64,000 nucleotides of DNA from Amphiscolops sp. MND2022 (Eukaryota). The stretch lies in NCBI GenBank assembly GCA_964187785.1, contig OZ076409.1, forward strand, positions 9,240,001-9,304,000, in the 5' to 3' direction. Numbering within the stretch: the stretch's first letter is position 1; the number at the start of each line of letters is the position of its first letter. The translations under genes were made by a program, and so were the position numbers. Under the pieces are notes generated by a model that ran no database searches, was not told where the DNA came from, and worked only from the letters and a program-made list of their open reading frames with translations. Below are positions 2,328 through 55,700 of this stretch, piece after piece.

Positions 2328-2535
2328 ATTAATACCAAGGGTTTAGTAAATTGGGAAATTGAGACAGGGACTATTAAAGCGCATAATTTCAGTGATCTTC
2401 AACAATCTCTAGAAAATCATACTCAAAGTTTTTGAAACTTCCTGAGTTCTAAAGTTGCTTGACATAATTCTCAAGAAGTTTCTCGAAATCCCTGATAACT
2501 GCGTGAGGGCAGTTCAACATTTTTAGTGGGCACTT

Positions 2536-3310
2536 TGTAATGGCACCCTCTGAGACAGCAAAATCAGTCGATATTGGAATTTTGGAATTGTGACATGTTC
2601 AGAAATTTTGTCAAAAATTCTAATTCGATGTTTGACGTGGCACTGAGCATGTGATTGCTCTTTTCGCTGTTTCAACGAAATTGGCAGGTACTTCGACAAC
2701 AAAGAGCAAGATCGAGAAAAAACATAAGGCCAGCCGCCCGAACAGACGCCAGAGACTGCAAAAACCTCTGAAATTAGACTCTTTCGAAGGTGCTAACCTT
2801 GATTTCAGCAGTATGCTACCTTAAGTAGCGAAAACCGTAAAAATGAGTCTTTTCGTCTAATTCACAAATCTGTGCCTGTGGTGCCCCAGCTTGCGAGCTG
2901 AATGTGGATGTTGCCAAATCGCTGTTGTGGACGAGATTGCTGCACATTGTTGTAAGTTTATGGCTATTTTGACAATTTTAGATCTTATTTCGTAATTTTA
3001 GATACTGCCCAAGTCAGTCACCCTGAATAACGAAAATTTAACATAATTTCCTTTTGGAACGTTTTTAAAGGCTGTCTAAGTGTTGGTTTCGAAGAAAAAG
3101 CGTAATGCGCACTACTGATAGCAATTACAGACTGGATCAGGCCGGCGAGCACTTCACAAGAAGCGGAATCCTCCTCTGACGGGACAGTTTTTACCCGAAA
3201 GAGGCAAAATGAGCTCATGGTCATGGGCGCCTGTCCCGGGCAAATACCCATATCATGTGTTCCTCTAACTCTTATGGTTACGGCGACAATGGTGAGAGCT
3301 TGTCGTTACA
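2536..3310 (+). repeat. 5' LTR of element A
   Basis: tgtaatggcacc...gtcgttaca, direct repeat of 10595-11369. Confidence 0.95.
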
Positions 3311-4430
3311 TAGAGACATCATTTTTTGGCGACCACAGAGGGATCGCTTCGAAGTGCTTCCCTTAATGGTTTTAAAAGAGCCGACCCTCTGGTGATTGAC
3401 GCCAAGTACGACCTGGCTCTGGTTGGAGAAGTTTACGCAGAGTTTTTCTTCATTTTTTAAAGTTTGATGTATTGACAGGTTTACTGTGGCAGGTTTTCTG
3501 TCCGTTTTTCAGGTGACTTTCCCAAGTACCGATGGTCTATTAGTAAACGGTATTTGTTGACAGGTATCGTCTAAAATTGCAAGGTTCCCATCAGCGGGTC
3601 CTCTTTTTAGAAGCGTAGTGGACAGTAGCACGTCGCTACTGGTGTTTAACAGGTTTTCTAGCTGTTTTCAGTGATTTGCGCTTATGTACGAGAGGTGAAA
3701 TTGATGGTTGAACCATGTTCCATCCGATTGATAGATGAGCTGAAACGAGTGTTCCCGACTCTCCTTTCCCATTTCTCGTGGAGACGTCCTAGAGGGATGG
3801 TTTTCGGTGAATAGGTAGAACAAGTGCTGACGTTGCCGACGGTCTAAACCGTTTCTCTCTAGCTGGTCTGGGTGTTGAGAAAAAAGACGGCGAAGGTACC
3901 ACCCCTCAGTCCAGAAGTATCAATTTTTCGGAGTATGGTATGAAAAAATTTTTCGATTGTGTAATTTTTGAAGGGGAATCGTTTGCTCATGCTAGTTTTT
4001 CCTTGTTGCAACTTAGTGTGTGCTTTTGCAGCCGTTTTCAGTGAGAAAAGTCCGATTTTGGGTGCAAAAGTAGCAAAAACGTCAATTTTGGCATTTTTGA
4101 GTGTTTTTCTTGGTACGAGCGCGAGCGCTCGAGGTATTAGTCACAACAGTTGCAAAAATGTATGGGAAGTAGCCCAAGACCTCTAGGGTACTGCTACATG
4201 ATGTGTTGTCCACCAGAAAAGGCGTTGGAGTCCCTTTTTGGACGCATTTTGTATGAAAAAACTCGATTTTTGGCGAAATTGGCAAAAAACCACTATCAAA
4301 TGCTACCTGAAGAATGCTGGATAGCACTGCAATCGCCTCTTCTGTGCTGCTAAAAGCTTGGGGCACCTTCCACGGCACAGAAACTAACGTTTGAGTAGGT
4401 TTTTTACGTTTTCATAACAGAAAAAATTTG

Positions 4431-4798
4431 GAAAACCTTGATTTTTGGCCAGTTTCAGGAGTGCCAGAGTGCATAATTAAAACCTCTAGGGCACTTAGTG
4501 TTTTTGAGTCCTGGGAGCCTAAGCGCTCTCATTTTCTGTTTGTGTAATAAAATTAACGCATTGTGGTGAAAACCGCATGCAAAAATTCCTTTTCAGTGCT
4601 GAGAAAAGTTGAAAAACCTTGATTTTTAGTCACTTTCAGGAGTGTCTCAGTACACAATTAAAACCCCCTGGGCACTCTGTGTTTTTGTTAGCTAGGAGCC
4701 TATGCGCTCTCATTTCCTGTTTTTCTATAAAAAATAACGTGTAGTGGTGAAAACCGCACGTAAAGACTCCCATTCAGTGCTGAGAAAAGTGGAAAAAC
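4431..4798 (+). repeat. Diverged ~181-bp tandem duplication inside element A
   Basis: aaaaccttgattttt...cagtgctgagaaaagt occurs twice at ~181-bp spacing. Confidence 0.85.
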
Positions 4799-5263
4799 GC
4801 ACTGAGTTTGATCAATTTTCCACAAAACCGGACTGTCTCTGAGCTAGGGTCGGGTCATCGATTCCTGAACCCTAGCCAAAAAGTGGTTGCATTTTCGTAA
4901 CCACCACCAAAATTAACGTTATTGCCAAAAATTTGGTGAGCGTATCGGTCACCAAAGTCGAGAAAAGCTCTCTGACGTTTTGACTTCGGAGAAGCGTAAA
5001 AGGACCGAAAAAATCCAAAACTGCAAGACTGTCAGTGCCTTATACCTAATGGGCACCACCAATTGAGGGTTTATCCCAGTGCTACGGATAGTGGGGCAAC
5101 ACGTTGGTCCCATTTTGCCCGCCGTATCACTTTCTGAGGTGATCCTCTTGGTCAATTTGTGAAAAAAGTTGTCAAAAACAGTGTTTTTTCGAGTGCAAAG
5201 TCCATCTTGGGTCGAAACCTCAAATAAGCGCTCGCGCTTCAATTCGACCATATCAGTGGCATT

Positions 5264-7330
5264 GTAGGTGCCCACTGGCATAGACTACCAAGTTTGGTGC
5301 CGATCTGTGTGATACTTGTTGAGAAAAAAGGAAAAACGTGGCACCCAAAAAGGTGCGCAAAAAGGCACTTTTTTCTTAATTTTTCCAAGTAACCCGGGCA
5401 CCTTAGCCAACGGGTGGGGGTATATTGCAGCCCATCATTGTAACTTGTGCTAGTTGCTACGTTGTTGCAGAGATTTTGAGCTTCCTAGCTCTTTCCAGTG
5501 GACCGTAGTCTTGAAAAAGACGTGAAAAACAGTGTATTTCGATACAAAGTGGTACCGCACGTTTGTACCTAGGTGAAACTGTGTAAAAGCGGCGCAGCTC
5601 AAAACTGTATTCATTTTCGCAAACCTACGTGTACTTAAGATTTGCTGGTCAATTTTGGGCTTAATACGGCGCTTCCAGCGCACACACGAGCCTCTTGAGT
5701 GTTGTGGTGCGATTTTTGGAAAATCCAAAAATTCTTTGAAATTCTTCCTGTGGGTGACTGGAGACTTTTTGCCCTAAACCAGGTTAATTTTCTGGCCCAG
5801 TGTGCTTGTGGGAAAGCGCTGTGCAAATTTGAATAAGCCTACAAGCCTTAGAACGTGTTTTGAAAAATCTTAGACGTTGAAAAAACATCAATTTTCTTAA
5901 GTCCTCACCGAGACGAGCAGAGGTCCAAATCCTTGAGGAGACCCCCTACAAGCCTACCAGCGTCTGTTTCACTATTCTAACAGCGTGGTTGGCGCCCACT
6001 GGCAGCGCCTGCCAAGTTTGGGATCAATTGGTACTGTATCTGTTGAGAAATTGACTAAAACGGACTACACAAGAAGGTGCGCAAGAAGGCGAATTCTACG
6101 AAGTCTTGTGGGATTGCCTGAACACCCTATTCAAAGAATTCGGCCACATTGCTGCCCACTATCGTAACCAGTGCAAGTATATCGTATTGTTGCCGAAAAA
6201 CGAGCGTGAGCGCTCTTTCCAGTTCGCCAGAATCTGGATTGACACGTGAAAAACAGTACATCTTGGAACGCAGTGATACCGAACGTCTGTACTGTGTTGA
6301 AACTTCACCTAGTCATCTCAGCACAAATCAGCTATTATTCCCTTGTACCTCAACTCACGTGGGATTGTGTGGTTGATTTTGAAGTCGATCCTGCGTTTCT
6401 AGCGTTAGCGCTAGTCACTTGAGTTTTTCTCAAGTGAATCTGAAAAATCAAAAAAATATCTGAAGAACCTCTGACTTGTGACTGGATCCCAGGACCCAAT
6501 TCTGGACTCACTTATTGGGTCAGTGCATCAATCCAGAAGAGCTGTATACCTTTCAGCACGCTACAACCCTTGAAACTAATTTCGACTCCTCTTGGACGTG
6601 CATATTCATTGTTTCAGTTCAAGGGTCCACCGAGACGAAAACTAGGAAAGTGGGAAAAAAGTCATTTCTGCGTGTTGGAAACCTGTAGAAACCCCTAGTT
6701 TGACCTCCCAGTAGTTCGTTCATTGCTGTGCGTGTGATATTTGATCAGTATCGAGTGGGCTGCCTTGCTATATCATAGCATTTTGTTACTTGAAGTGTGA
6801 TATCCTGTGTATTGTAACGAATTGGATCATTTTTTGGAACTGTCGGCGCACCTGCTTGGAAAGTTGGGATTACATTGCCCTGGACTATTCTTACTGGTGT
6901 CAGTTGGTGCACCGTTACCGAAAAAGTGAGCTTGAGAGCTCAGCACTGTGGACTAGAGTCTTTGGTTGCACGTGAAAAACCGAGTCAATTGAGATACGGT
7001 GATACGGCAAGCCTGTACAGCATCTGCAACTCATTCAACAGTCTGAGCCCCAATTGCTTCTCGTTACAGTGTACCTGGCTATACGTGGAACCGCGTGGCC
7101 AATTTTGAGCCCGATCTTACGTTTCCAGACTTGGTACGAGCCACTTGAGTAATTTTCTAAAGATTTTGAAATTTTCAAAAATTGTTAAAAAACACTCTAG
7201 CTTGTAGCTGGAAGTATTTATCAGCCTCGGTAAGTCCTCTTTCCAACTTTTGTAACTGAAGAAACGTGCTGTGCAATTTTCTACCCAGTACGTCTGATAA
7301 AACTGATTTTGACTGTGCCCAGGCACGCAT
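5264..7330 (+). repeat. About three diverged ~725-bp tandem units inside element A (boundaries approximate)
   Basis: Anchors cccactggca at 5271 and 5995, and cgtgaaaaac at 5521, 6245 and 6971, with colinear similarity around them. Confidence 0.75.
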
Positions 7331-9426: not shown

Positions 9427-10594
9427 GGCCTGAGGAGTTGACTAAAGTCCGGGGAGTCTCATGGAGAGACAACACTCTATTCTCTACATTCCACGCTGAC
9501 CACCCACGGAATTTTCCACAATCTAAAGTGATGAAATCCTGACCGCACATTACTTTCAATCGATTCTGATGTATACAATCACAGCTTGATATAAAAACTT
9601 TGTTTTTTTTGTTTCTCGTAAAATTTTATTTGATATAACATTTTCAAGGCTATCAGCGAGGCTTAACAAAAAAAAACAAAGAAAAACAAAAAAAAACAAA
9701 AAAAAACAAAAAAAAGAAACATAAAAGTCCTCGTCAGTGCAACTTTGGCCAGATGCTTTTTCTTATAGTTTCTTCTTTAATTTCATTATCTCTATAGTTA
9801 TACTCCTTGAAGTTTCAATGTTAACTTTCTTTTGATTCAGTGGCTTTTCTACGGAATAACTTGTTTAATGGAGCTCATTAGCCCCCAAATTTTCAATTAC
9901 AGAATCTTGTCTAATTTTGTCTCAGTGCTAAATCTCACATGCAGTCAGTTGGTAAATCGCTTTTCATACTCTCAACGGATGCTACTGATTTTTGTTTTGT
10001 TATGGAGCTGCACATCAGTGCGTGCTGCCTAAACCTAGCCAAACTTTGAACACAAAAAAATATCAGAAACTACCTGTTTTCCTTTTAAACAGTGGTTTTT
10101 CCGCTGAAAAGAAGTTTTACTGAAAACAAGTTTTAACTGTTCTGCAAACTGAGTTTTTACTGGCGTAGAAAAGAAGTTTTTGGAAGAAACCGCGCCAGAG
10201 AGCCCCAGGGCTCCAAAAAAATTCTTGAACCACAAAAACATCAGTGCTATCAAGATCCTATCCAAATTTAGTACAAAAAACTTTGCCAATTGAATGATGC
10301 TCTTAGATTGATATATAGATTAAAGATTATGATTTGTTTGAAGATGCATTTTGAGTGCTCGTTTTCTAGCCCCAGGGCTTGCTCCAGTAACAGCAGCCAG
10401 TGAATAAAGCAGGCTCGATAGATCGCAAGAAACAAAACCTCAATATTGCCCCAAACACCAAAAGATGATTGTGACACAACTCCGATGCAAAATCACCAGC
10501 TTGAACTCCCAGTCGATTTCAATGATGATGAGGAAATGTTTCAATGCCAGCTTCTCCGCATGACAGGGACGTCATGCATAAAGTCCGGGGAGTA

Positions 10595-11369
10595 TGTAAT
10601 GGCACCCTCTGAGACAGCAAAATCAGTCGATATTGGAATTTTGGAATTGTGACATGTTCAGAAATTTTGTCAAAAATTCTAATTCGATGTTTGACGTGGC
10701 ACTGAGCATGTGATTGCTCTTTTCGCTGTTTCAACGAAATTGGCAGGTACTTCGACAACAAAGAGCAAGATCGAGAAAAAACATAAGGCCAGCCGCCCGA
10801 ACAGACGCCAGAGACTGCAAAAACCTCTGAAATTAGACTCTTTCGAAGGTGCTAACCTTGATTTCAGCAGTATGCTACCTTAAGTAGCGAAAACCGTAAA
10901 AATGAGTCTTTTCGTCTAATTCACAAATCTGTGCCTGTGGTGCCCCAGCTTGCGAGCTGAATGTGGATGTTGCCAAATCGCTGTTGTGGACGAGATTGCT
11001 GCACATTGTTGTAAGTTTATGGCTATTTTGACAATTTTAGATCTTATTTCGTAATTTTAGATACTGCCCAAGTCAGTCACCCTGAATAACGAAAATTTAA
11101 CATAATTTCCTTTTGGAACGTTTTTAAAGGCTGTCTAAGTGTTGGTTTCGAAGAAAAAGCGTAATGCGCACTACTGATAGCAATTACAGACTGGATCAGG
11201 CCGGCGAGCACTTCACAAGAAGCGGAATCCTCCTCTGACGGGACAGTTTTTACCCGAAAGAGGCAAAATGAGCTCATGGTCATGGGCGCCTGTCCCGGGC
11301 AAATACCCATATCATGTGTTCCTCTAACTCTTATGGTTACGGCGACAATGGTGAGAGCTTGTCGTTACA
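10595..11369 (+). repeat. 3' LTR of element A
   Basis: Direct repeat of 2536-3310, preceded by ccggggagta. Confidence 0.95.
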
Positions 11370-11952
11370 CTTCATGAAGTGAAACGCGACTATACTAGTG
11401 ACTTTTTTTCAATCCACACGAACTGACCAAAATAGTTCTTAACTTTTACCAAATTTTATGGTGACAAATTGAACCATTTGGGCTAGGGAACTGAACCAAA
11501 AAGATTGTTCCTTTTTTCAGCGATTATACAATACCGGGCGAGACCAAAGGGTGCCCCTTCCACTTGCTTACAGCATTTGTGAGACTTTTTTTCGAATTTT
11601 TTTCTCCAAAGGGTCTGCCCTCATTTTCTTTGATATTTTGCAACAGAATGGATGTTGAAAAATCCCAAAGGGTCCCGCCTTTTATAATTTTTGGCACTTT
11701 GGGACATTTCGAAATTCTCCTTTTTTTTCCGAATTTTTTTCCTCCGAAGGGTCCGCCCTCAACTTTTTTGATAATTTGCAACAGAATGGATCTTGAAAAA
11801 ATCGGAAAGGGTCCCACCATTAGAAGGCGCCAGTTCGGTCCAATTTTCGGGTTTTTTAGGTAATGTAGAAAATACTGGACACTTAGATAGAAGTCCCTGT
11901 GCTATTTGGAGCCTTAGATATGGCGCCGACTTCTGGCGTTCCCGACTTGTTT
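11370..11952 (+). mobile_element. HINE/DINE-like repeat copy 2; its first ~15 bp lie at 2520-2535, split off by element A
   Basis: Rejoined site ttttagtgggcactt+catgaagtgaaacgcg matches the reverse complement of 45720-45759. Ends ggcgccgacttctggcgttcccgacttgtt. Confidence 0.75.
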
Positions 11953-11961
11953 TATTCTTTG

Positions 11962-17377: not shown

Positions 17378-17988
17378 CAATAAGGGAACTGCATACGTCG
17401 GCACCGGCTCAAAGCTCAAAAAACGCCAATACACCAAATTAACTCGGACCTGAAAGGATCAACCTTTTTGGAAATGAAAACTCAAAAGATGAACCTTTTG
17501 GTTTAATAAAGTTTCGAATTCAAAGCAGTGTGAAAAAATGAAAGGGCCTTTTTGTAGTCTTTTGAGCTTTTTCACAATTGAGGCGTAAAGAGCGATTTTA
17601 AAAATTATTGTAACATCGTCTAAATTCGGCGCAATAATTAGGGCTCAGAAAGCGCGCAAACTTTTAAATATATGCTCATGGCTTTTTTGAAAAACTCACA
17701 AAATGTTTCACACACAAAAAACTCAAAAACTGTTCCAAAATATTTTTAAAATCCAAAGGGGGACCCTTTGGAGACATTAACAAATTTTCGAAAAGTCTCT
17801 TAGTCCTGAAAAAAATCTAAAGATGGGACCCTTTGGTCTAGTCCGGTTTTGTATGTTACGTTAAAAGTGGAATAAAGGAAAGGGGGACCTTTTGTACCAA
17901 CTTAGATGCATTTTTTTGGCTGGTCCAGTAGTTTAGTAGTAAAAAGTGTCCACTACACCTACATTTTGTTATCTGACAAAAAAACAGG
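17378..17988 (-). mobile_element. HINE/DINE-like repeat copy 3; remainder at 43774-43833, split by element B
   Basis: cgtcggcaccggctcaaagctcaaaa at the left end (boundary approximate), aaagggggaccctttgg motifs, continuation ...cgccgactaaaaa at ~43820-43832. Confidence 0.65.
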
Positions 17989-20312: not shown

Positions 20313-20765
20313 TTAATTGTACAGAGGATGTTGTTGAGGTGGATGGGCCTGATGTTGATGAGGGTCATAAAGTTCGAGTATTTGTGTATATCCAAAACTA
20401 TGGAGCATTTCATTGAATGCATCAGTGGCTTCTTGTAGAGCAGCATGAAAATATTGGTCTTTTGAAGTGAATGCGGAGTTTAACACAAAAACGACATTAG
20501 AAGCCGTTTCACAAATGGCAATTTTTGGTCCAGCAACGTGAAGCCTTGAATATTGTTGAAATGTGATGTGTTTCTTTTTAATTTGTGCGACATTATATAG
20601 GACTTTCAGAAAGGCAATAAAAGATTTTGGCGTTATTTTGTTGTTGTTTATTTCCAGAGAGAGTTTATAAGCCATTGTATGAAAAATAGCTGCTTTGAGG
20701 CTATGGGCTTTTGAGTGACTGGAAGTCATGTTTATAATGTCTTCTACTTCAGCGTTGGGGGCCAT
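20313..20765 (-). CDS. Unknown 150-aa accessory ORF of the giant Gypsy
   Basis: Intact ATG-to-stop frame with good context (gccATGG), protein-like composition, same strand as gag-pol-env. Confidence 0.55.
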   Translation of the reverse strand: MAPNAEVEDIINMTSSHSKAHSLKAAIFHTMAYKLSLEINNNKITPKSFIAFLKVLYNVAQIKKKHITFQQYSRLHVAGPKIAICETASNVVFVLNSAFTSKDQYFHAALQEATDAFNEMLHSFGYTQILELYDPHQHQAHPPQQHPLYN

Positions 20766-20858
20766 GGCGATGAAGTCCTGTAGAAGAAGAAGATGTGGAG
20801 ATGTTCTGAAAGAGTATGGAAGGAGAAGGAAGAAGAATGGATGTTTCTGTACAAGAGT

Positions 20859-25050: not shown

Positions 25051-25086
25051 AGTATGAGTTTCGTTATATAGAGTGTTGTATAGAGT

Positions 25087-38377: not shown

Positions 38378-41300
38378 GTACAATAAAGTCGTCTTAGAGT
38401 ATGTTAAAAATATAAAAAATTTTGGATATGAAGATGTGATTAAATGAAAGTTATATATTTTGTTATATAGTGGTTAATTGTTATATATTTGGATCCGTAG
38501 ACTGGTTTTGAAAGAGTTTGTATAATATATGTACTATATAATATAAAGTAAAGAGATGTTCTGCAAAAGTGTTATGAAAAAGATATATGTTATATAGGTG
38601 TGCCAGCTGTAAAGTTGATCCAAGCGGCTAGAACCAAAAAATTTTACTAGCAGGAATCGCTGGATAGCACTGTAGAAAGGCCAACACGTATCGCACGTCT
38701 GCGGTTGGAACGAAAGAAAGAGAGAAAAAGCCAACACGAATTCACTCAAAGGTGGTTGGAACGAAAGAATAACTGACAGGAATTACGTTAAGAAACGCAG
38801 TCAGAAGCAAGAAAGATGACTGACAGGAATTACGTTGGAGGACGCAGTCAGAACCATAGCAACACGAATCAATTTCTGTGGAAATTGGTTGCAACGTGTG
38901 AAATTAATTATGGTAGGCAATGTTGAGGGGTGGAGAAACTGTGTGTCGAACAAAGAGATATCGGATGAGAAAGTCGAGAAAAGGTGTACAACAGTTGTAG
39001 AGGTGTGAAATAAGAGGGAGAGAAAGAACAATTTTCTTGGTCGCGCCAATTGAGCTGTTAAAAAGTATTGTGGTGTTTAGTTTTAGATCTTTTAAGAATG
39101 ACATAAGAAGTATAGACTTTTAACAGCAGAGTCGTCTTAATTTTAATCTGTTAGCCAACTGGGTCTAAGTCCAAATTATCTGAGATCTCAGTTCTTGAAG
39201 TACTAGAGAAAAGACCGATCGTTAGGATGAATTCTCAATTTCTCCGAATAGATATATTCTATTAACTAAAGTGGGTTTCATCAATTATTAATGTGACAGC
39301 AACAGGATGAATCGAAGAAGCTTGTTACAGGATATATTAAATGAAGTTTCTTCTAGAATAATTAGCTTTCAGAGAAGATTACATTTCTGAAGAGTTCAGA
39401 CAATTTCTGAATTATAGAATCTTTGAGGACATGCATTATGGCATCACACGGTCTCCTGTTTAAGCACCCTAGGCATTATCCCACTTATATGATGTACGCT
39501 GCTAAGTGGACATTACATCTAGAATAGTTTTTATGGTGCCTCACAAGGGACCTTTTTTTTTCATTTTTGCGTCATACTTGGAGTTTTCCTGCTTTCCGGC
39601 CCTGCTAGGTCCGGATCTAGGGAAAACTTTTTGGAGAGTGCTAGATTGTTTTTATTGCCTTTTTTATCCCTTTGGGCCTTTTACTAGTGCTATTCCTGCG
39701 TGTCCTGCATGTTTTCGAGGTCTGGAGCCAGAAATAGACAGTTTCAGGCAATGTACCCTGTGTATCCTGATTATACCTGTTGAAATAGTTAATACGGCAC
39801 ATCCGGAACTGGTTTTAAAGGGTTCTGGAGCCTCAATTTAGCAAATTTGCATTTTATGGGGACCGAGAGGACGTACAGTGAAGGTTCACGCTAGCTGACA
39901 CGAAGACGTGACGTCCTACACGACCACACCTCCCACACCCCTGTGATTGCAGCAACCCCCACGTCAATCGGGTTACACCCCCAAATTTTTCCATTCACCA
40001 ACCAAAAAAGCATATTCCCAGGCATATCCCCACGTAAACTAACTGGAAATAACACCCAGTGGGTGTTCGGATCGTTTGTAAAAAATTGGAGAACGAAAAC
40101 CTTCAAAATAACACCATTTACGCTCAAATTTCAATTTTACCGATTTTAAATGTCAAAATTTTGTGGAATGAGATACGGCCAGTGGGAGACAAAAAACATT
40201 ACAACAGACCTACCAGGTCAGGGACAAAAACCTTTTGTTGGGCCTAATTGTGAAAAGAAAATTGTTAAAAAATCGTCAAATTTGGCCATTTTGACCAAAT
40301 TTGGTGAAGGCGAAGCCTTAGATGTTTGTTACCAAGTTCGTAAAGCGGCCCAGAAGCCTTTTTTCCGCGCCTGGTAATACAGAATACTAATGCCAGGACG
40401 TTTTCTAGTTTTTCGGAAAATAAATTGAAACTTTACCCCTTGACATTTTTTGTATACATAGATCTGAGTAAAGGACCCCATAGACCTGAGCGATATAACA
40501 TCGAAAATAATAATTGAAACTACCCCAGTCCCCTATATTAGGCTGTTGCATCTTTCTACACTATTGTTAAAAACATTTGGAACGTCTTAAAACAGAGAGA
40601 GAAAAAGTTCGTGTTGAATACACGTATTTTCAGTACTGTTCCCAGAGTGTAAAAAGTGTAGACTGAAAATTTTTTGAGTGACCTTATTTGGAACCTGTCA
40701 GGTTTCGCTTGCCTATTTTCTGGTATTAGGGAGCGTAGCGTTACAAACGCAGAGAACTGCGAGTGATTCCAACCAGTGGTTGTTGTGATATTACAACAAA
40801 CGTGTTATTTTTGCGACATTTTCGGAACACTGTGGTAGTGTTCCCATGACAGGTCGAAATCTCTCCTAGTGCGTGCAGTCTAAAACGAATTGCGCCATCG
40901 TGTAGACCTTAAAAAGTTACGTTTGTGGTGTACATTTCGTAGCCCTACCAATACTAGTGCTTGAGAAATCTTAGCCGCAGTTTAGCTCAAAAATCGGAGA
41001 AAAATGTCGAAAAAAATCGAATTTTAGTTCAGCACAGTGCAATACCTTGCAGGTTTCTCAGCACTAAAATTCTGTCATTTTCGTGCAAACGGTACCAGAT
41101 CCTGACGATTTGTGCATTTTGAGCAGTCTGATACTGTCCAACTTGGTGAAAATGACGTTTTTGTGATTTTTGACCCGAAGAAGTGCTACCTAGGATACAG
41201 CATATTTTTTGTCTCTTCGGATCGTAAGATTTTAATCCAGGCACCCCGCCGCCGTAGTTTTCTGTTTTGTGGGAATAAATTACGCCCGCATACCAAATTT

Positions 41301-43056
41301 CAGTTAGCTACCAAATTTCACAACTTTTTTCACAACCTACGGAGCCAATTTTAGCTCAATCGGAGGATAAGTCCCCAAGATTTGGCTACTGTAGTATACT
41401 GTGTAAAATTTTCAGGTCGCTAGGGGCGCTAGAACTGATTTTCAATTTCCCCAAGGTGCATATTGACGAAAAAATTGTTGATTTTGTAACTTTTTGAGAC
41501 AAAACTCACAATTTTTGTCAGCGTATGTGCCATTGAGGGAACAAACGACCTCACTAGTATGCCAGGCACCCTCAGCTGGTCCTGTTGAATTCTTTTAACC
41601 ACTGCTAAACCGATCCTAAGATCTGGGGTCTCTGAGAAAACGGTCCAAGAGACAAAGAGGTGAAAAACCAAAAATCGAAATTCGCCTCCTGACTGCTGTC
41701 AAAGTCACCAAGTGCAATTTATTCCACATGAACACGCATGCTGGTGCCCCGTGTGCCTTGTGGGTGCTGGAGCTTGTGCATAGGCACTTTTAGAGGTTCA
41801 GACCGTGAACGCAGTGCGTCTCAAAACAGAACAACAATAGAGTAGTGACTACCATAGTTGAAAAAGAACGCTTTCTCCGATCGTACTACAATCGTAAGGC
41901 TAGAAATCACTTCAAACTAAGTGTCCTTCCTCCTACTCACCCCCAAAACCTATTCCCAGTCCCTGATCACAATCAAGTCCTCATTTGTGCTCCCCAGAAA
42001 CAGGGCAGCATGAGTGACAAACGGACTTTTCAGACAATCTAGCAACTGTAGCCAAGCAGGAAAAATCAGTGATCATTGCTCAATTCACGCCTAAGGTTCT
42101 CGGTAACACAGTTGTGCAAACCATGTTGATGTGAAAACATCAGACAAGAGATTGGACCGGGGAGTACTTGTACTCTCCCGAAAGAAATCAACACCAAGCA
42201 TGATGAAACACCTGGAGCTTCCAAGCTCTGAGAACTGCTTGACCAGAGCCCTTGCTTTTAAAACTCCAATGATTGTCTTGGAATTTGCTTTTAATGCCCA
42301 AGAATATCTTCATGATCTATCATGCCTGATTTTTGATTTTTTTTGGATCTGCTCTATCATCGCTGTGGACATAATCATCCTCTTGAGAAGCAGTTTAGTT
42401 CCATCTCTTACATGTACGCTGGTGCTTATACTGCCTAGACGTTACCTTTGTCTGAGCATACACTGCTAACAGAATAGACTGAATGGGTCCTTATTTTTGG
42501 TCGTTTTTATGGTTCTTTGAGGACTGTTTCACCATTGGTGTAATTTATTGTGCAGATTCTGTTGGCCATGAAATACAACACTTCAGCAAGACCACAGCTG
42601 TTACATTTACGTTTCGCTATCGTGCTATTTACAAGTGCTATCATGCATTTTGTAAAACCTAACCTATCAGGTGGCCCCTCGGCCAATGCCAAACCGGTTG
42701 TGATGAGTGCTTTTTATACTTATACAAATGCGGTATCAAAGTGCTAGTAATTTTGGTGCGAAATTAAAAGTTAGAAAATGTTTTGAATACAATGCTAAAA
42801 CTGTCTAAAGTTGCTAATACTTTTCCAGTGCAAGAACCCATTGTTGGTGTGGAATCCAAGGAAGCCTGCTAGGCTGCCAAAAACTCATGTTTTTGGCAGT
42901 AACATGCTTTTGGGCAGTAACTTTTTTTCGGGCAGCAACTTTTGGTCGGGTTCCTGAAATGTCATATTGCTGAAACAGTATCCCTGGATGATGACAACCA
43001 AGACGTGAACGTCCATTGTCGTTTGTTGAGGACGAGAAACTACGGCCCGGGGAAGA

Positions 43057-43773
43057 TGTAACATCAGGCAGTCGATGTTACAAATTTTCGATCTAAAACT
43101 CGAAATGTGCGAAATCAAATAAGCACATTCAAGATGGCCAACCCGGCAGGTACGGAAACCGTAGAAGAAGCGGAATAACGCAAAAAAACCCACCCAGCCC
43201 GAGGGAGATTACCCCACCATAGAAGTGTCCCCGAAGTAGCCGTGTGGTGCTATCCCCCTCGGAAGACATCCCAGCTACCAGCGGAACCCGAAGAATGGCC
43301 CAAGAGATGAAGAAACTCAAAAGTTTGCATATTTTGCATGTTCCACCTAGCAGGTCAAAGACTGGCTGACACTGAGGCCTGATGTTATCTCAGTCTGTTG
43401 TACCGTATTTGTGGTTGTTTCAGATATTTGGTGATGTTTGACCCCTAATTTTGTTATATTGAACGTTATTCACTTAAAATAATGTACTTTAGCTAAATCC
43501 CTGTTTTTGGACCTCTGTAGTATATAGGAAGTCGCAGGAACGTTAGGAACCTTAGGATACGTTTTTACAGGCTTGTGGGACGTGTCCAGACTTTGAGTGC
43601 GCCGGCACGTCGCCACGGAGCTCTAACTGAGGAGCCTCCTTTGACGTTCGAAATAGTCCCTTTTAGGAGACCATTTCGGGATTAGGAACTAATGTCTAGG
43701 GCAACGGTCTCCTGTTTAAGCACCCTAGGCATTATCCCACTTCTCTGATGTACCCTGCTAGGTGGACGTTACA
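43057..43773 (+). repeat. 3' LTR of element B (717 bp)
   Basis: tgtaacatcagg...ggacgttaca, homologous to 17989-18403/39453-39517 and to the solo LTR at 46434. Confidence 0.9.
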
Positions 43774-43937
43774 AGGAAAAAACTTGCCACTGTAACAGTT
43801 GCGCTCATGTTGTTAAAACACGCCGACTAAAAACAAATGAAACGACAAAAAGCCATGATCATAGTCGGTCTGTTTATTAAATACAGCATCTATATAGCAT
43901 TATCATATGGCATGTGTGTTCACCATAAAAAAATTAC

Positions 43938-45059: not shown

Positions 45060-45759
45060 AAACAAGCCGTGACCGGCCCAAGTCGGCGTCATATCCAAGG
45101 CTCAAAAATAGCAAAAGGACTTCCAAGTGTCAATTTACAGTACTCGAAAATCGAAAAAGCAAAAAAATGGACCCAGTGGCGCGTCGGGGCCCGCTAGCGC
45201 GAGCCCCTGGCGCGCTAAAAGGGGGACACTTCCGAAATTGTCAACATTTTTGTCGCAGTTGAAGGGACCCTTTGGAGAAAAAACAAATTTTCGAAAAAAA
45301 GTCTCACAATGCCGAAAAACTGAAAGGGGGGACCCTTTGGGGTTTTTCAACATCCATTCTGTCGCAAAACATCAAAAAATTGAAGGGGTAAAAAGTTTTA
45401 TTTTCGGAAAAAAACCTCAGTGCCGAAAAAAACTGAAAGGGGAGACCCTTTGGGATTTCCCAACATCCATTCTGACGCAAAACAGCAAAAAAATTGAAGG
45501 GGAAAAAATTTTCCGAAAAAAAAGTCTCGCAGTGCCGAAAAAAATTGAAAGGGGGGACCCTTTGTTCTCGCCCGGTATGGTATGCTACGCGGAAAAACAG
45601 GAAAAATCTTTTTGGTTCAGTTCGCTAGGCCAAATGGTGCAATTTGCTGCAATAATATTTTGTAGAACTTTTAAGAACTATTTTGGTCAGTTCGTGTGGA
45701 CTGAAAAAAAGAGTCTCTATAATAGTTGCGTTTCACTTCATGAAGCGCCGACTAAAAAG
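45060..45759 (-). mobile_element. HINE/DINE-like repeat copy 4 (complete)
   Basis: aacaag...aagtcggcgtcatatccaaggctc ... gaagcgccgactaaaaa; reverse-complement homologue of 11370-11952. Confidence 0.7.
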
Positions 45760-45916: not shown

Positions 45917-46942
45917 CTGTTTGTATGTATAAAAAATCAACTCATCAGTTTTGATTCAAATTACTCTTTCCTCTTCGTTTTTTTTTGTCAAACTAAGTCT
46001 CGTTTACGAAGCTTATGTCATGGAAGACTTTTCATTCAGAGTTTGTATCTCCAGTCTTGCTTGAAATTGTCTGCTTTCAGTAATTTCATTAGATTTTATG
46101 CCGAACTGTGAAATATCTAGAACGAATTTTAAGAATTCCATTTTGATATATCATGGTCACAAGTTGATCACGAAACTAGAAGCGCTTAAAATATCCCCAT
46201 TCGATTTTTAGCTTTTTGTAACTGTAAAATGTTTTTGGAGTACAAGAAAAAGCTTTTTGAGCATTTTCAATGCAATGCAACCCTTTGAAATCAAAAGAAC
46301 CTGGATTTCTTGTTGTTTATGGAAAGTTCATAGATACCCGACTTTTTGTAGTTTCTAAAAACCAAGCCCCAAAGCTTATTTGAAAGACTTGGAACTTTTT
46401 GTGCCTCTAGACTTCCTTTCTCATTTCATTCAATGTAACGTCCAGCAAGTGATGACAAAAATTCAATGAAAAATTCGAAATGTGCGATATCAAAAATTGT
46501 CACAATAAAGATGGCCGACCAGGCAGGTTCCAGATATCGAAAAAGAGGACGAAAAAACAAACAAACACACCACCCCGCAGTCCCCGACACCTGAAGACAC
46601 TCAGAAGAGGCTGAAAGAGAGTAAAACCCAGTGTGGTGTCTTTTCACCCAGGAAAACGTCGGAAAAGACCCCCCAAAATCAAGGTGCGACTTGTCAGTGG
46701 ATCTTTTGCAAGAGCTCCGAAAGAAACCATCATGAAGGAACTCTTATCAGTTAATTTCATTTTTCTTAGTGTTTTTAGCAGATTAAGTGATGGTGCCAGA
46801 GCTAGCAGATCTTTGTATTTGTAGTTTTAGATATACTATTCCGGAAATACAATGTACTTTGGCAGAACCTCTGTTTTTGGACCTCGGAGGTATGTAGGAG
46901 TCGCGGGAACACGTTAGGAACCTTAAGATACGTTTTTACAAG

Positions 46943-49900
46943 TGTAATGGAAATCTTTGAATAATTTTCCACTTGCCATTATTAATCATTGTCAATATTG
47001 AATAAAGTGATTCATCAACGTCAAGAGTTTCGACCCCCATTTAAAGTAAGATCATTCCAATTTTCTTCTACAATTTTTGGTGACCCCTCCGACAATTTTG
47101 AATGAACATGCCCACGAAAAAGTCAATCGCCACAATAAAGGCAAAACTTCACATTGCAAAAACTAAAATGGAGTCAGCGTTGAACAGTTTTTCAAAAGAA
47201 TTAGAGTCAGAAAAGCCAAACATTATTGCAATTAGCCATTACAAAAACACAGTACAACTAAGACTTGAAGACTTAGAAGAGAAAACTTATGAAGCAATTG
47301 ACGAAACCCCAGCAGAAGAACAAACCGAACTGATCGACCAGCTCTCGCAATTTCATCTACAAGTCGATGAGCTTGCGCAGAAAAGTATGCACATCAGCGA
47401 AACACAGGCGAACATAACGCCAGCGTCCACTTTTCAAACCATGACAGCTAATCAACAACCCGACGTCGCTAACAATCAAACAGGACGTGCAGCCAATGTC
47501 AGTTTCGACGCCATCAACGATGAAGAAGATCACAGACGACAACAGACCCAACCGGACAACAGCAACTCAACCCCACAGACTGTCAACAATCGTCAAGCAA
47601 ATGCAGCAGACAACCAAGAGGACCGACAAGGGTCACTGCCAACAGCATCCGCAGTCCATGCAGCTACGAATGCCACCGCAGACCACTATGGAATACCATA
47701 TGACCTGACATTTGGACCCTACTTGAACACACTGCCAAAGATGAACATTGAACCCTACACTGGGGACCCTCTACAGTGGTCTGATTGGAGAAGTCGCTTC
47801 GACTTCATGATCGGCAACACGCCACTCAGCAACAGCCAGAAGATCGCGTATCTACAAGGATTAGTTACAGGAAAAGCAAAAGACGCCATTCTTCATTTCC
47901 ACTGCAACGGACAATTCTACAATGATGCCCTGCAGGAACTCGAAAGAAAATTTGGAAAAGCAACGACAATTGTCAATGCGTACATACAAAAACTCCTGGA
48001 CCACCAACCACCAATCAAAGGTAACCCTGAATCATACATCAACTACACAACATTCATCAAAGGAATGATCCGCAATCTGCAGCACTTAGAACACACAGCT
48101 GACCTGGAATCAACAACAAACTTGCGACATGCCATCAAGAAAATACCCACCTCAGATCTTATACGATGGCAACAATACATCGTCAACCGCCGCATCGACC
48201 GACCAAATCTGATTACCTTCTGCGATTGGTTGAAGCCGATAACAGAAGCATACGAGCTACTAGAAGACAATGATAACCAACAACTACATACACTACAGAC
48301 ATTCACAACACAGACCATCAACAGCAAAGGATCAACAAGTCAATCAGCAACCTGCCCTCTAGGAGATGGACGACACCAAATTTTCAAATGCCCAATTTTC
48401 ATCGCACAGAGCCCGGAAGAGAGACAGATGACTACAAGAAACAGTGGTCTCTGTTTCAACTGCCTGAATAAAGACCACCGCATTGCCAACTGCCCTTCAA
48501 AGAAGAACTGCCAACATAGCAACTGCAATAAACGACACAACACTTCACTTCATAGAGACTTCCAGATAGCCGGTAGCTCATCACACCTCACCGGAAGACA
48601 AGGATTCAGAACAAACAACAGAAATCAGCCACTGGAAGCATCTCAAGACAAAAGCCCGAGCCACAAAGGAACAACTGCATCAGTTCAGGTGACACAAAAG
48701 ATATCGACAAACAACTGCCTTCAAAGGAACACAGAAGCCGAAAACTACAGAACAGAGACACATCAGCCAGCAGCCACTTTGCAGATTTTACCAATCAACC
48801 TGCACAATCAACACCGCTCTACAGCAGTGTATGCTCTACTTGACAGTGGAAGTACGTCAAGCTTCCTCACAAAGAACATAGCAGAAAAGCTGAAACTCAC
48901 CCCGAAGACAACAACGACACTGAAGATTAAAGGATTCAACGCAACACAGACAATCAACAGTACCGTAGTTGATCTACAACTATCTGATATCGAAAACAGA
49001 GAAACACATAAATGGAGAAACGTCTACATAGGCGACAACGACCAACTGCCAACAGTTAAAGAACACCCCAAACAGATAGCCGACAAATATGGACATCTCA
49101 GAGACATCCAAATGCCACAGCTCAACAACCTGAACGTAGAAGCACTACTTGGATGCGACATGTATGCTCTCATTATAGCTAGAGAAATTCGAGAAGGAAA
49201 CACAGAGCAACCCATTGCCGTCAGAAGCCGCCTCGGATGGACCGTCGCTGGACCGAATCAGCATTGTACACCAACGAATGATGTGTATTTTTGCCAAACA
49301 TGTGAAAGCCACGACCAACAACTGTTTGAAGATGTCAAAAGTTGGTGGAAAGTGGAATCTTATGGACCCAGAGCAGCAACCGAAGACCCAACGACTAACG
49401 ACGAAGACAAAGCACTTGAAATACTCGCAGACACTTGCCGCAAAACAGATGAAGGACGATTCGAAACAGGACTCCTCTGGAAGTCAACTGAGGAACTGCC
49501 AAACAATCGCATTTACGCCGAAAACCATCTGAAGTCCCTACAGAGGAAACTCAAAGAAGACGACGACCTAGCACAGCTCTACAGAAAAGAAATACAGAAA
49601 GACTTGGACAAAGGATACATCAAAGAAATCAACGAAGAACAAGAGGAAGACAACACCAAGTGGTTTCTACCACACTATGGAATAGTTAGCCCGGCGAAAC
49701 CTGGAAAGATTCGCCGCATTGCGAACGCCGCCGCTGTCTTCAATGGAACATGCCTCAACGATCATCTACTACCTGGACCCGCCCTACTGAACGACCTAGT
49801 TGGAATCATACTACGCAGTCGCGAGAAGCCAATACTCATCACCGCCGACATAGAAGGTTTTTTCATGCAAGTTGGAGTCCGGAAAGAAGATCGCAAATTC

Positions 49901-52720
49901 TTGCGATTTTTGTGGAACGACGACTTGAACAAACCACCGAAGGAATTCGAATACCAAAGACACATATTTGGTGCCAGAGATTCACCCGCTTGCGCCATCT
50001 ACGCTTTACAACAAGCAGCCAGAGACAACGCGGAGAACTATCCAGATGTTCTCGAAACCGTGACAACGGACTTCTACATGGACGATTTTGTGAAATCCGT
50101 TGGATCAACCGAAGAAGCACTACAACTACATCAACGATTAAGACACGTTTTAGGAAGCCACTCCTTCAACCTTATCAAGTGGTGTAGCAATTCCCGAGCA
50201 TTCTGCAATGAACTGGATGAAACCCTATTGACGAACGAGAAAGACGAAATCTTCACAAAGAACAACAGACAAAAGGTACTGGGAGTTTCCTGGTTTCCGC
50301 TCACTGACATGTTTGCAGCTCATATAAACAAACACAACCCGGACATCCTCCAGAAATGGACTCAACGCAAACTGTTAGGACTCATTACACGACTTTTTGA
50401 CCCACTGGGAATAACAGCACCTGTCACAATTGTCATGAAGGTAAAGTTACAAGAGATATGGAGAAACGGACAACATTGGGACGATGAACTACCCGAAGAC
50501 CTTCAACAATTCGTCAAGGAATGGACCACTAATACAGCACATTTGAATGAAATGAAGATCCCTCAATATTACAATCTGCCAACCGCTCAGCCAATAGAAC
50601 TACACGTCTTCTGCGACGCCTCAACTCAGGCCCTCGCCACAGTCATTTTCATCCGATTCGCACACAAAACAGTCTACCAAACGAAATTCGTCATGGGAAA
50701 AACAAGAGTCGCCCCACTGAAACCACAGACCATTCCAAAGCTGGAACTACAAGCAGCCGTCTACTCATGCCGATTACAAAGAGCATTCATCAAAAACACG
50801 ACCCTGTCATTCTCAAAGATCACACACTGGACTGACAGCACAGTTGTCTTACATTGGATCTACAACATTAACAACCGACAGAAAACGAATATTGCCAATC
50901 GACTACACGAAATACGACACACGACAGCTATAGATGATTGGAAATACGTACCTACAAAACTCAATCCAGCCGACGAAGGAACCCGAGGAATCAAGCAACA
51001 GAACTCAAGCACTCACAATGGATGAATGGACCAGCATTTCTCAAGTTGCCTTCACATTTATGGCCTCGAACTATCGAAGACACCACACCCAACACCCTGG
51101 ACAATATGCCGACATCAAAAACAGACGACATACAAACCTACAGCCTAATCTGCAATACACCGCATACCTTCGTGGACTACAAACAATTCTCATAGTGGAA
51201 AAGATTGCTTCGAACTACCTTCTATATTCTCAAGACATTGGATCTTGCCAAACGACGACTATCCACAGTAAAAGAACGTTATCAACGGAGTAAAGACATT
51301 CTTTTCAGAGTCGCACAAAGTGAAAGCTTTCCAGAAGACATCAAGGACATCCAAAGAACACAAACCGTTAAAGCACGCAGCACGATTGTCAGCTTCAACC
51401 CATATCTCGATCAAGAAGGAACACTTCGATCACTCAGCCGACTTCAAAAAGCCCCAATCAACTTTCGAATAAAAAACCCTCAAATCGTAGATGCCAAACA
51501 CTACATCATACGACTCTACATACAGCACATACACGAAGATGAAGGACACGTAGGACTAGAACACAAGAGAGTAATACTGCAACAAGAACACTGGATGACC
51601 CATTTGACAACCACACTCAAACAAATAATCTACAACTGTTTCATCTGCAAACGCCAACGTCAACTACCTAGTCAACTCAAAATGGGTAACCTGCCGGAAT
51701 TTAGATTCGAGAAGACACCTGCAGCTTTCGAAGACATTGGAATGGACTACTTTGGACCCTTTCCTGTATATCAAAGAAATCAACGCACCAGCCAATACGT
51801 CTGCATTTTCACCTGCTTCAGAACAAGAGCAGTGCACTTCGAAGTTGTTGAAGACCTGACAACTGACTCATGCTTACTAGCGATCAGACGATTCACAAGC
51901 CGACGAGGAAAACCAACAAGTATAACATCTGACAACGCGAGTACATTCCACGCAGCAGCCAAATCCTTGGACCTGGGAAAGATAGAAGAAAAACTAGGAT
52001 CCCAACAAATTGATTGGAAATTCATACCCCCTGGAACGCCACATGACGGAGGAGCTTGGGAACGTCTAATCAGGATGGCAAAAAGAATCCTCTACTCAAT
52101 GTCTGGAACCCAAAGTTGGACCCAACAGACATTCAATACCTTCATTTGCCAAGTGGTAGGAATTATGAATAGCAGACCTCTGACAAAAGCTTCAGCAGAT
52201 AGCAACGACATAGAATGCCTCACACCCAACCATTTCATCATCCCACGACGCAGCAACTTCTCAACGACAACATTAGAGGCTAACAAACACACCGATAGAC
52301 TAGTTCAACTAAATAGACAGTGCGAGTCAAATGCCAATCAATTCTGGACAAGGCTCATGAAAGAGTACTTGCCGACTCTCAGGCCCCAATCAAAGTGGCA
52401 TACGACCAAAGATCCCATAATGAAAGGTCAAGTGGTGTGGATTCTTGAAAACAACTCGCCCAGAGGACTATGGCCCTTGGGTCTTGTGACAGAAGTTTAT
52501 CCAGGGTCGGACAACATTGTTCGAAAATGAAAACTCAAAACGAAAACTGGCGAAACTGTCAAGAGTGCCCACCAGTTATGTCCCCTGGAGTGTAATGGAA
52601 ATCTTTGAATAATTTGCCACGTGCCATTATTAATCATTGTCAAAATTGAATAAAGTGATTCATCAACGTCAAGAGTTTCGACCCCCTTTTAAAGTAAGAT
52701 CATTCCAATTTTCTTCTACA
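46943..52720 (+). mobile_element. BEL/Pao LTR retrotransposon, full length (5,778 bp)
   Basis: 130-bp LTRs at 46943-47072 and 52591-52720 (4 mismatches by eye). 5-bp TSD acaag/acaag. PBS tggtgacccc (tRNA-Trp-like). Confidence 0.96.
47102..52590 (+). pseudogene. gag-pol: BEL/Pao gag-pol polyprotein with one frameshift (~51000) and two premature stops (51193, 52528)
   Basis: Three Gag Cys-His motifs (including CFNCLNKDHRIANC and CQHSNCNKRHNTSLH), PR LLDSGS, RT FYMDD, RNase H LHVFCDAS, integrase GMDYFGP/SDNA/GAWERL, terminal LCPLE. Confidence 0.95.
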
Positions 52721-55700
52721 ACAAGCTTGTGGGACGTGTCTGGACTTTGAGACTGCCGGCACGTTGCCTCGGAGCTCTAATCTGAGGAGTCTACTCAGAC
52801 GTAAGTCCCCCTAGGAGACCATTTTGGGACCAAAAACTTATGTCTAGGTTGTAGTAAGACAACGGTCTCCTGTCCAAGCAATCTAGGCATCGTCCCACTT
52901 CTAGAATGTACGCTGCTAGCTGGACGTTACACAATTTCAAAAACAGTTTCGATGATAGAAAATTTGAACATGAACAAATGCACTGCGTTTTCTGAAAACG
53001 TGACCAAAATTAATTTTCAAAGAAATTGAATTAAATCAATTCAGAGAGATTTTTCTAAAAACCAAATTGAGAAAATTTGATGTGAAATTCGTGACCTACT
53101 CAACGACGTGGCGAGGTTGGGAGATTCCGAATATCCGAATAGCAAAAATAATTGCAAATTATTCAAATTTTGTAATTACGTCTGATGAGTTGATTATAAA
53201 CCGTTGTCAGAGACAGTGAATTCCATCCAAAAATTTCTTTAACCCCGATAGTAATTTCAACCTCAATTGAGGATAGCGATGTTTTTCGCAATCAATAAAA
53301 GTTTGCGAAACAGAGAATATACAAAAAAAAACAAAAACTGGTCTTTCTCATCGACAATCTATTGGAATAACTGCGGTGAGTTATTTGTGTCAATATAGTT
53401 TTTTCGGGTCACCGGCAAAAGAGTAACTAGAAAAAGTGAAAAAAGCAAAACAATACTTTTCAAAAAATTTGTTTTTTTTCTCAATATCTGAGCAACTGTT
53501 TGCAGAGTTACTGTCCCACTCTAGTAACACAGTAGGCCATTGAAAACCCATATAGAAGTTTTTTCAATGAAGCTTCAGCTATGAGTACGCCTGTGATAAG
53601 GATTTGAGCTGCGGTTATTATTCGTGGAGAAATGACGCTTTGAAAAATTTTTGCTAAAACTTTGTCACTTTCTGAACTTCGTGTACTGTCGAGGTTGAAA
53701 TCCAATAAACACTGAATGTAATTTTTCTGCTAATTTTGACGCTGGCTGTGTTATAGAACTGAAATGAGAAAACCTAATGGGCTTAGGTCAGCGATGAAAA
53801 ACAATGGTCCCTCAAGCAATGAGTAATGTATTCAACAAGTCTTACTAAAGTCGTCTAAACTTCTTTGTTCGGTGATTGACGCTTGCTGTAAGCTGCACTA
53901 TTCACTAAGTCCAAACATTTAGAAGCTTAAGTGTTCATTCTTCGAGACTTTCATATCAGCGTTCCTTACTGTCTACGAAATTATTGAACTTAATTAATCT
54001 CAGATAACAAGAGCGAATTTGCGTTGGTTTGGTTTAGAATAAAATATTATTTATGTTCAATTTGTTTGTACTGAGAGTTTTCATCATTTAAGACCTAAAA
54101 CAATGAAGTAGTTTACGCACTGTTCGAAAAAGTAAAGTATGCCTTAATCAATTTTGTCCAACTGAGGCTACAAAATTTCGAAATTGATAGGAGAATTAAC
54201 GAAAAAGTTGGAATTTGCTGAGTGATGAAAATTTCAAAATAATACGAGAGGAGAAAATCAAATATATCAAAATGGAACCCAAAAAAATCTCCACCCAAAA
54301 AAGCCAAAGGAATGTTTTTTTGTTTTAAAGACATTGCTTGCCTGAAATTCTCATTTTGCGTAAATGCTAGTCATCTAGTGTGAATCAGAGATGCAGATTT
54401 TCAAAGATACAGGGAAGTTTTACAAAATTTTCTAAGATGCAAGGAAGTTTCACAAGATTTCTCCCTGCATGATCCCTGAAAGACATCGGTTATAACGTTA
54501 TTAATCTTTTGAATTTCAACTTCGTCTCGTCCCCTAGTCGAGCCTCCATGAACTTTTTAGATGTTGCATGAATGCATGCAGGGAAACTTTTCAAAAAACC
54601 TAGAAAATTTAGGTTCATGCAGAGAAAAATCTTGTAAAACTGCAGATACGCTCTATTTCATGAATAAGTACAAAAGAAAGGCGGTACAGTTTAGCTAAAA
54701 AATAAGCAGCTCCGAGTCGAATAAAAACTTCGAGCCACCGATTTACAGAATGACAGTGGGTGGAGGTAACCTTCCGATTTTCAGAAGAAGGTGTATTGTT
54801 CATTGACCAGCATCTCAGAAAATAAGGTTCGCTTTATACCACTGACAATTGCCAAACTTATATGAATGAAACGTTCATCATGATCGTATGTTTTTCCCAT
54901 CGTCACCTGATTTTCATCTCTCATTTTTGTACAATTTTTGTGTCCCCGAGAATATTCCTCAAGAAACGGAGTCATCGGAATTTTCAAAATCATATTTTAC
55001 ATTTTTATTGAACTTTTGCCAACAAATCTGACGTAGCTAATATAAAATCAAAATTTAGGTTTCGTTGTAATTGAAGAGTTCGGGGAAAAAATTTCCGATT
55101 CCGGAAAAGCAATTCAAAATTTTGCTTTTGGTTTAGATTGTGATAATTGCAAATCCTTGCAATTGTATGAAAACCCTAATTGTGTCAAAACTCATTGTTC
55201 TGTAAGTGTGAACATTTCCAGGTCCGAGTTTCAAAGTCAAGAGCTTCAACTCAATGAAACTTAAGGATTTGAGGAAATATGTTCAGAATATGCACATTAA
55301 CCTCAAATCGACGAGAAAAATTCCGTCGCCATTCAGATCATTAGATCTCCTAAACTATTCGAGTCCAACAAACTATTTATATCAAATTATCAGGCAAACA
55401 TATTAGTTTCCGACTACGGAAAAATTGAAATGGAAAGCGTTTGCACACTTTTTCACACCAAAAGATACAGCATTGATTCAGCCGATGGAAAAGGTATGAT
55501 TCCAAAATTCAACAAGTCAGGACCGGCATAAGTCGGTGCCCAGTTCAAGTTTCAAAAAACCAAGCTTTTTAAATGTGCAAAGGTCTCTAATTTTTTAATT
55601 GTACAACTTCTCAGTGCCGGAAAAACCCCAAGTGTCACAGGCTGCCGCCTGTGATGGCCATTGGTATTTTCTATCATACAAGTACTTAAAGTACCGAAGA

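Follow-up and report, generated by a model that had tools for sequence, protein, structure and literature searches.

Three-base-pair target site duplications at long terminal repeat retrotransposons of an acoel genome, and their possible Gypsy origin

Do long terminal repeat (LTR) retrotransposons with conventional TG..CA ends leave target site duplications (TSDs) of 3 bp and, if so, what kind of integrase would produce them? The question is raised by a stretch of 64,000 nucleotides from Amphiscolops sp. MND2022 (assembly GCA_964187785.1, contig OZ076409.1, forward-strand positions 9,240,001 to 9,304,000; hereafter the window, with coordinates counted from its first base). A preliminary description of this stretch had reported 3-bp TSDs at two LTR elements, A and B, and at a solo LTR. 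The reading preferred here is that all three are non-autonomous derivatives of one Gypsy lineage, the integrase of which is predicted to stagger its two strand transfers by 3 bp; a probability of about 0.62 is assigned to it.

Footprints and shared structure of the three insertions

TSD lengths from 2 to 8 bp were scanned, and 3 bp was the sole length that matched in all three insertions: CTT on both sides of element A (2536-11369), AGG on both sides of element B (17989-43773) and CAA on both sides of the solo LTR (46434-52931). Three unrelated insertions in the window gave 4, 4 and 5 bp, namely CGGT at a Gypsy element nested inside the 5' LTR of element B, AGTT at a Gypsy-type solo LTR (14344-14737) and ACAAG at a BEL element nested inside the solo LTR. 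The normal TSDs of the Gypsy and BEL elements had also been noted in the preliminary description, and the lengths of all three unrelated footprints support 3 bp as a trait of the group formed by A, B and the solo LTR. A 3-bp match is expected by chance at 0.018-0.020 per site, giving 6e-6 to 8e-6 for three of three, a figure uncorrected for the earlier reader's choice of elements.

Element A is inserted in a host repeat, and an empty paralogue of this repeat on the minus strand (45758-45594) aligns without gaps over the junction and carries one CTT, which fixes the duplication of element A at 3 bp. The flanks of element B come from a single copy of this host repeat, in an alignment too diverged for TSD measurement; element B is therefore a single insertion, despite LTRs that differ by 7-11% and by large indels. 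No empty site was found for the solo LTR. The 3-bp footprint of the three insertions is confirmed as real.

The right junction of element A alone has two further readings, ACTT and CACTT, in which the last bases of the LTR are assigned to the target. It would then be conceivable that the usual 4-bp Gypsy stagger is masked as 3 bp, one base coinciding with, or having been lost beside, the terminal A of the LTR, and element B and the solo LTR have had time to acquire single substitutions. This is improbable. Element B (C versus A) and the solo LTR (T versus A) disallow such a reading unless each changed independently at the same position, and it requires an element ending in TTAC, yet the 5' LTRs of both A and B end in TTACA before the spacer.

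Beyond their TGTAA..TTACA ends, the LTRs of A and B have no significant similarity. As had been described previously, both elements nonetheless place the TGG of the primer binding site (PBS) 16 nt past the LTR (3327 in A, 39534 in B), compared with 5 nt in the nested BEL and 2 nt in the nested Gypsy. The PBS sequences of A and B differ, and element B was probably primed by another transfer RNA (tRNA) than A. The motif CCGGGGA(G/A)(T/G)A lies directly before the 3' LTRs of both elements; the pattern, which was derived from those two sites, has two matches in the window against 0.17 expected. This polypurine tract (PPT) had been called BEL-like. The motif stands, but the BEL leaning does not, as the BEL element of the window differs in its PPT, its spacer (5 nt) and its TSD (5 bp), and the open reading frame (ORF) of element A links to a Ty3/Gypsy Gag-Pol. 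Element A carries two near-identical PPT motifs 1.1 kb apart (9444-9457 and 10580-10594), the first directly after its ORF. Folding of the segment spanning the U5 (unique 5') region, spacer and PBS gave z = -1.0 for A and -2.1 for B, and no shared structure is claimed. No pol was found in either element, nor any protein remnant in B, and no autonomous partner lies within the 64-kb window, in agreement with its earlier placement elsewhere. A and B resemble LARD-like elements (large non-autonomous LTR derivatives).

The LTRs of element A are identical (775/775), and A is therefore young, alone among the three. The 5' LTR of element B is split by the 21-kb Gypsy element, and the two LTRs of B are 89-93% identical and differ by large indels; the solo LTR, split by the BEL element, is 81-84% identical to those of B. 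This divergence indicates that the group is old and long-lived, and the recent activity proposed previously thus applies to element A, not to B or the solo LTR.

The element A protein and its Gypsy relatives

Residues 13-227 of the element A ORF are homologous to the pre-capsid N-terminus of Gypsy Gag, and the ORF contains neither capsid nor pol. Its product has three RRGRPP motifs (AT-hook-like), with long helices and a hydrophobic C-terminal helix predicted, and its structure model was of low confidence (predicted local distance difference test score, pLDDT, of 44). The protein matched no Pfam family at threshold, had no solved relative in the PDB and gave no usable Atlas match. A resemblance between the end of the ORF region and the C-terminus of BEL integrase was dropped, since it was not recovered even at E<10.

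The ORF belongs to a family of 316 proteins at E<=0.01 among the 8000 candidates scored, with clusters of up to 82 members. The best 120 of the 316 relatives were all from ENA and 55-94% identical, and 97 of these 120 kept at least two RGRP motifs. In subfamilies that are only 55-65% identical the reading frame stays open, and the RRGRPP repeats and the hydrophobic C-terminal helix are conserved. Sequence comparison suggests selection on the non-autonomous element's own Gag-derived protein.

The connection to Gypsy was made through longer relatives. An alignment search for longer forms returned two matches among the 8000 candidates, P0241 and P0242, in which the N-terminal part of the element A ORF is joined to a capsid and an aspartic protease. 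A cluster mate of both, P0246, adds RVT_1 (3.7e-8) and a Gypsy-type RT_RNaseH (7.8e-11); it has an internal deletion and lacks the region of the reverse transcriptase (RT) catalytic motif. Its best solved match is Ty3 RT (1e-25), and its capsid region matches Retrotrans_gag/Ty3_capsid clusters at 0.93-0.95. A CCHC knuckle of any spacing was found in none of the three linked proteins, which may be degenerate copies. Independently of P0246, the protein P0352 matches residues 13-227 of the element A ORF with 33% identity (2e-26) and ends in a motif that in P0246 leads into the capsid and occurs in 10 of 319 family proteins. The match and the capsid-entry motif together indicate that the element A ORF corresponds to the portion of the lineage's Gag that precedes the capsid. 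Over its first 272 residues P0246 shares 94% identity with a capsid-less member of the family, as would be expected for the product of recombination between co-packaged RNAs. Judged from these alignments, the element A ORF appears to have two separate links to Gypsy, one old (P0352, 33%) and one young (P0246, 94%).

Several stand-alone Gag N-termini (P0352, P0414, P0437 and P0438) end at or just past the capsid-entry motif, two of them at the same residue; a recoding site or a shared stop is possibly the cause. Cluster look-ups of the stand-alone Gag N-termini returned no longer members.

The N-terminus of P0246 bears on whether the helper of these elements was a Gypsy at all. The 3-bp footprint could be a true family trait while the helper was another enzyme (a BEL or Troyka-like integrase, or an unknown pol) and the Gag fusion an incidental chimera. 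The 94% identity to capsid-less members would mark that N-terminus as a recent graft, no DNA ties a P0246-type pol to the LTR of element A, element B has no coding remnant, and the T-rich spacer is also present in the window's BEL. The older homology to a stand-alone Gag N-terminus, at 33% identity, nevertheless indicates descent rather than grafting alone. The TSD of the window's BEL is 5 bp, and Troyka elements end in CG..CG (PMC12440569) and have RT motifs that differ by eye from those of P0246. A non-Gypsy helper is accordingly considered unlikely, though it is the most serious of the alternatives.

Integration model and other features of the window

Under the preferred reading of a single Gypsy lineage, the RNAs of A and B would depend on an autonomous P0246/P0352-type relative for packaging and reverse transcription in trans, with priming from a host tRNA at the PBS and then from the CCGGGGA tract. 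The ancestor of element A would have lost capsid and pol but retained an open ORF for the N-terminal part of Gag. With the PBS placed 16 nt past the CA, the linear complementary DNA would bear about 16 extra bp at its U5 end, to be trimmed back to CA. Strand transfer by the integrase at a 3-bp stagger, followed by gap repair, would yield the 3-bp duplication, and the solo LTR would have arisen by recombination between LTRs with the original TSD kept. Trans-mobilisation, U5 trimming and the stagger are drawn from general LTR biology. From the sequences we infer, as the preliminary description did, an altered integrase geometry. A broader proposal, held at slightly better than even odds, is that of a long-lived, high-copy acoel Gypsy lineage with a TG..CA-end integrase, 16-bp U5 trimming and a 3-bp stagger. 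In this lineage 3-bp integration would have arisen independently for a second time among LTR retroelements, and the N-terminal Gag-derived protein of the non-autonomous members would be under selection.

Relatives were also sought in sequence collections. The exact LTR-end patterns matched no stretch in metagenome, viral or prokaryote genome collections. In viral contigs the RT stretch gave 10 pattern matches, none of them confirmed, and the RT motif gave none. In metagenomes the RT motif was found at 41 loci, all distant, with best stretches mostly 39-48% identical, and these loci are therefore no test of the present lineage. Three of the 41 had readable LTR pairs, with flanking matches of 4 bp, none and 3 bp; the repeats at L010 and L032 were not scorable LTR pairs. 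Two similar-looking metagenome Gypsy elements without a canonical tRNA PBS, L034:7510-12680 and L009:6965-12837, had flank matches of 3 bp (TCT) and 4 bp (AACC), respectively. Among sequencing runs, two matched at a 0.05 share, with no RNA run among those listed; a related copy in run X2 (record 9) also starts matching at 2536, and its flanks were unusable.

Several points weigh against the preferred reading, in addition to the ambiguous right junction of element A. Only three insertions were measured, and an empty site fixes the length in A only. Element B is tied to A by shared structure only, and the internal similarity of A and B was not significant, its best score being equalled by 1 of 40 block shuffles. 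Proteins of the P0246 type have the look of recent chimeras and might be by-products instead of the helper, and neither the integrase of the lineage nor the DNA context of any pol-bearing copy, with its own TSD, was recovered. Lone 3-bp matches can be unrepresentative, as L034 and its apparent family mate L009 illustrate. In the portion of a Drosophila survey available to us, off-mode TSDs amount to 1.8%, mostly differing by one base in either direction, and include a single 3-bp call for Dm88 (PMC3276498).

The isolated 3-bp match of L034, together with the small sample and the possibility that the earlier reader chose elements for their oddity, would be accommodated if the three footprints were chance matches or rare off-mode events in families that usually duplicate 4-5 bp. 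Three chance matches at the frequency computed above, the 3 bp fixed by the empty site of element A and the small off-mode share in Drosophila make this the least probable of the explanations considered. The parts of the three insertions are listed in Table 1.

Table 1. Positions of elements A and B, the solo LTR, their footprints and the elements nested in them.
Feature	Position	Strand	Basis
Element A left TSD, CTT	2533..2535	+	length scan; empty-site paralogue
Element A 5' LTR, 775 bp, TGTAA..TTACA	2536..3310	+	
Element A LTR-PBS spacer, 16 nt	3311..3326	+	
Element A PBS, TGG start; resembles tRNA 3'-end complement	3327..3344	+	sequence
Element A long leader, 181-bp tandem pair and degenerate ~725-bp repeats	4409..7280	+	
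Element A ORF, 437 aa	8113..9426	+	
Element A second, internal copy of PPT motif	9444..9457	+	
Element A PPT, ending in CCGGGGAGTA	10580..10594	+	
Element A 3' LTR, same sequence as 5' LTR	10595..11369	+	
Element A right TSD, CTT	11370..11372	+	length scan; empty-site paralogue
Element B left TSD, AGG	17986..17988	+	length scan
Element B 5' LTR, left part, with deletions relative to 3' LTR	17989..18403	+	
Nested env-bearing Gypsy, TSD CGGT, 2-nt spacer (internal control)	18404..39448	-	
Element B 5' LTR, right part	39449..39517	+	
Element B LTR-PBS spacer, 16 nt	39518..39533	+	
Element B PBS, sequence unlike that of A	39534..39551	+	sequence
Element B PPT, CCGGGGAAGA	43047..43056	+	
Element B 3' LTR, 717 bp, TGTAA..TTACA	43057..43773	+	
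Element B right TSD, AGG	43774..43776	+	length scan
Empty paralogue of element A's host repeat, single CTT	45594..45758	-	alignment across junction
Solo LTR left TSD, CAA	46431..46433	+	length scan
Solo LTR of B family, left part	46434..46942	+	
Nested BEL/Pao, TSD ACAAG, 5-nt spacer (internal control)	46943..52720	+	
Solo LTR, right part; 13-bp terminal inverted repeat with left end	52721..52931	+	
Solo LTR right TSD, CAA	52932..52934	+	length scan

The host repeat that received A and B is dispersed over the window (1804-2330, 2520-2535 with 11370-11960, 17750-17988 with 43774-43832, and 45050-45760). It is marked by a TTTTTAGTCGGCG end, a hairpin follows its inverted GGCGCCGACT motif, and we take it to resemble the Helentron-associated HINE/DINE-1 elements. 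Both insertions lie near the same end of the repeat, which makes up about 9% of the non-element DNA; two of three insertions falling in it has P ~0.025, a weak hint of a target preference for the repeat. An 89-bp tandem array of 15.8 copies (97% match) lies just past the host repeat at 11962-13365.

The nested 21-kb Gypsy encodes a Monjiviricetes-type fusion glycoprotein (PF24664, 2.7e-23), contains two internal tandem duplications, one of about 2.9 kb (95%) and one of about 1.7 kb (82%), and has no purine-rich tract before its 3' LTR. The closest named matches of the nested BEL integrase are from the acoel Convolutriloba macropyga (43-48%), the other named matches listed being at 31-38%, which is in keeping with an acoel host. 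Two heavily degraded Gypsy-like pol regions, at about 55900-60000 (plus strand) and 60700-63900 (minus strand), share no more than weak RNase H similarity with A, B and P0246. Of host genes a single apparent fragment was seen, an exon at 1-310 (minus strand) that by eye resembles an amino-acid permease. Rfam gave no matches.

Comparison with known systems

With BEL/Pao elements (Belpaoviridae) the present elements share a T-rich spacer before the PBS, and the TGTAATGG start is common to the LTR of element A and that of the window's BEL. They differ in TSD length, which is 5 bp in the window's BEL and in the Drosophila BEL elements covered by the portion of the survey available (PMC3276498). 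No remnant of a BEL Gag-Pol (DUF1759, Peptidase_A17, DUF5641) was found in A or B, and these domains are present in the nested BEL and absent from the linked protein P0246, which has a Gypsy-type RNase H and not Peptidase_A17.

A several-kilobase non-coding, tandem-repeat-bearing interior between intact LTR, PBS and PPT is also a feature of large non-autonomous LTR derivatives such as cqUNK of Culex, as far as these are covered in the sections seen of PMC3286476. In the same sections, Culex rows give 4-5 bp compared with 3 bp here; element A differs further in keeping an open Gag-derived ORF of 437 residues.

The TG..CA ends, tRNA-type PBS and PPT are those of Ty3/Gypsy elements (Metaviridae; Ty3, Osvaldo-like, CsRn1). 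The order Gag-protease-RT-RNase H and the Gypsy-type RNase H are found in P0246, not in A or B, and the link is by homology. The 16-nt spacer differs from the 2 nt of the window's own Gypsy, and the 3-bp TSD in three of three insertions differs from the 4-6 bp that is typical, not definitional, of the group. In the parts of the sources consulted, TSDs are of 4 bp for Drosophila Gypsy (PMC3276498), 4 bp for Culex Osvaldo-like elements and 4-5 bp for Culex Mag (PMC3286476), and 4 bp for CsRn1-like elements (PMC2582038).

A footprint of 3 bp is known from Troyka, which has 5'-CG..CG-3' ends (CGCCA..TGGCG) and LTRs of 100-400 bp; the combination of 3-bp TSD and CG ends was presented in 2025 as the mark of that superfamily, other LTR retrotransposons having 4-6 bp (PMC12440569). 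Likenesses to Troyka and the Kuafuorterviruses are the 3-bp TSDs, aquatic animal hosts and non-autonomous members, as described in the parts seen of PMC12440569 and PMC11673190. The present elements differ from Troyka in ending in TGTAA..TTACA and in having intact LTRs of 775 and 717 bp. Membership in Troyka was rejected on these two grounds, which bear out the earlier proposal of a distinct LTR group. The RTs of the Troyka/Kuafu clade have an IADD-type motif and a distinct N-terminal half. P0246 lacks the catalytic-motif region; the N-terminal half of its RT is Ty3-like and, compared by eye, differs from the Kuafu RTs in the part seen of PMC11673190. The zinc finger of Troyka Gag (CX2CX8-10HX4C) has no CCHC counterpart in the three linked proteins, which may be degenerate copies. 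Acoel hosts are absent from the Troyka table and from the searched text of the Kuafu supplement (PMC12440569, PMC11673190, each as far as seen). The literature searched, to which Repbase and most subscription journals did not belong, yielded no account of LTR elements that combine TG..CA ends with 3-bp TSDs, and an earlier description is possible.

If the reading of a Gypsy lineage with a 3-bp stagger is true, stagger length would be separated from end sequence, and a second natural integrase would be available for studying how the distance between the two strand-transfer sites is determined. From the conserved spacer of 16 nt one would also predict that the 3'-processing step is unusually long. 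Confirmation genome-wide and in a pol-bearing copy would establish that 3-bp integration had a second origin among LTR retroelements. LTR finders that by default demand a TSD of at least 4 bp would miss such elements in LTR-rich genomes such as those of acoels; LTR elements account for about half of the S. roscoffensis assembly in the part of the source seen (PMC9911081). Set beside the known systems, the present elements share their footprint with Troyka, are not Troyka, and are most likely a Gypsy offshoot.

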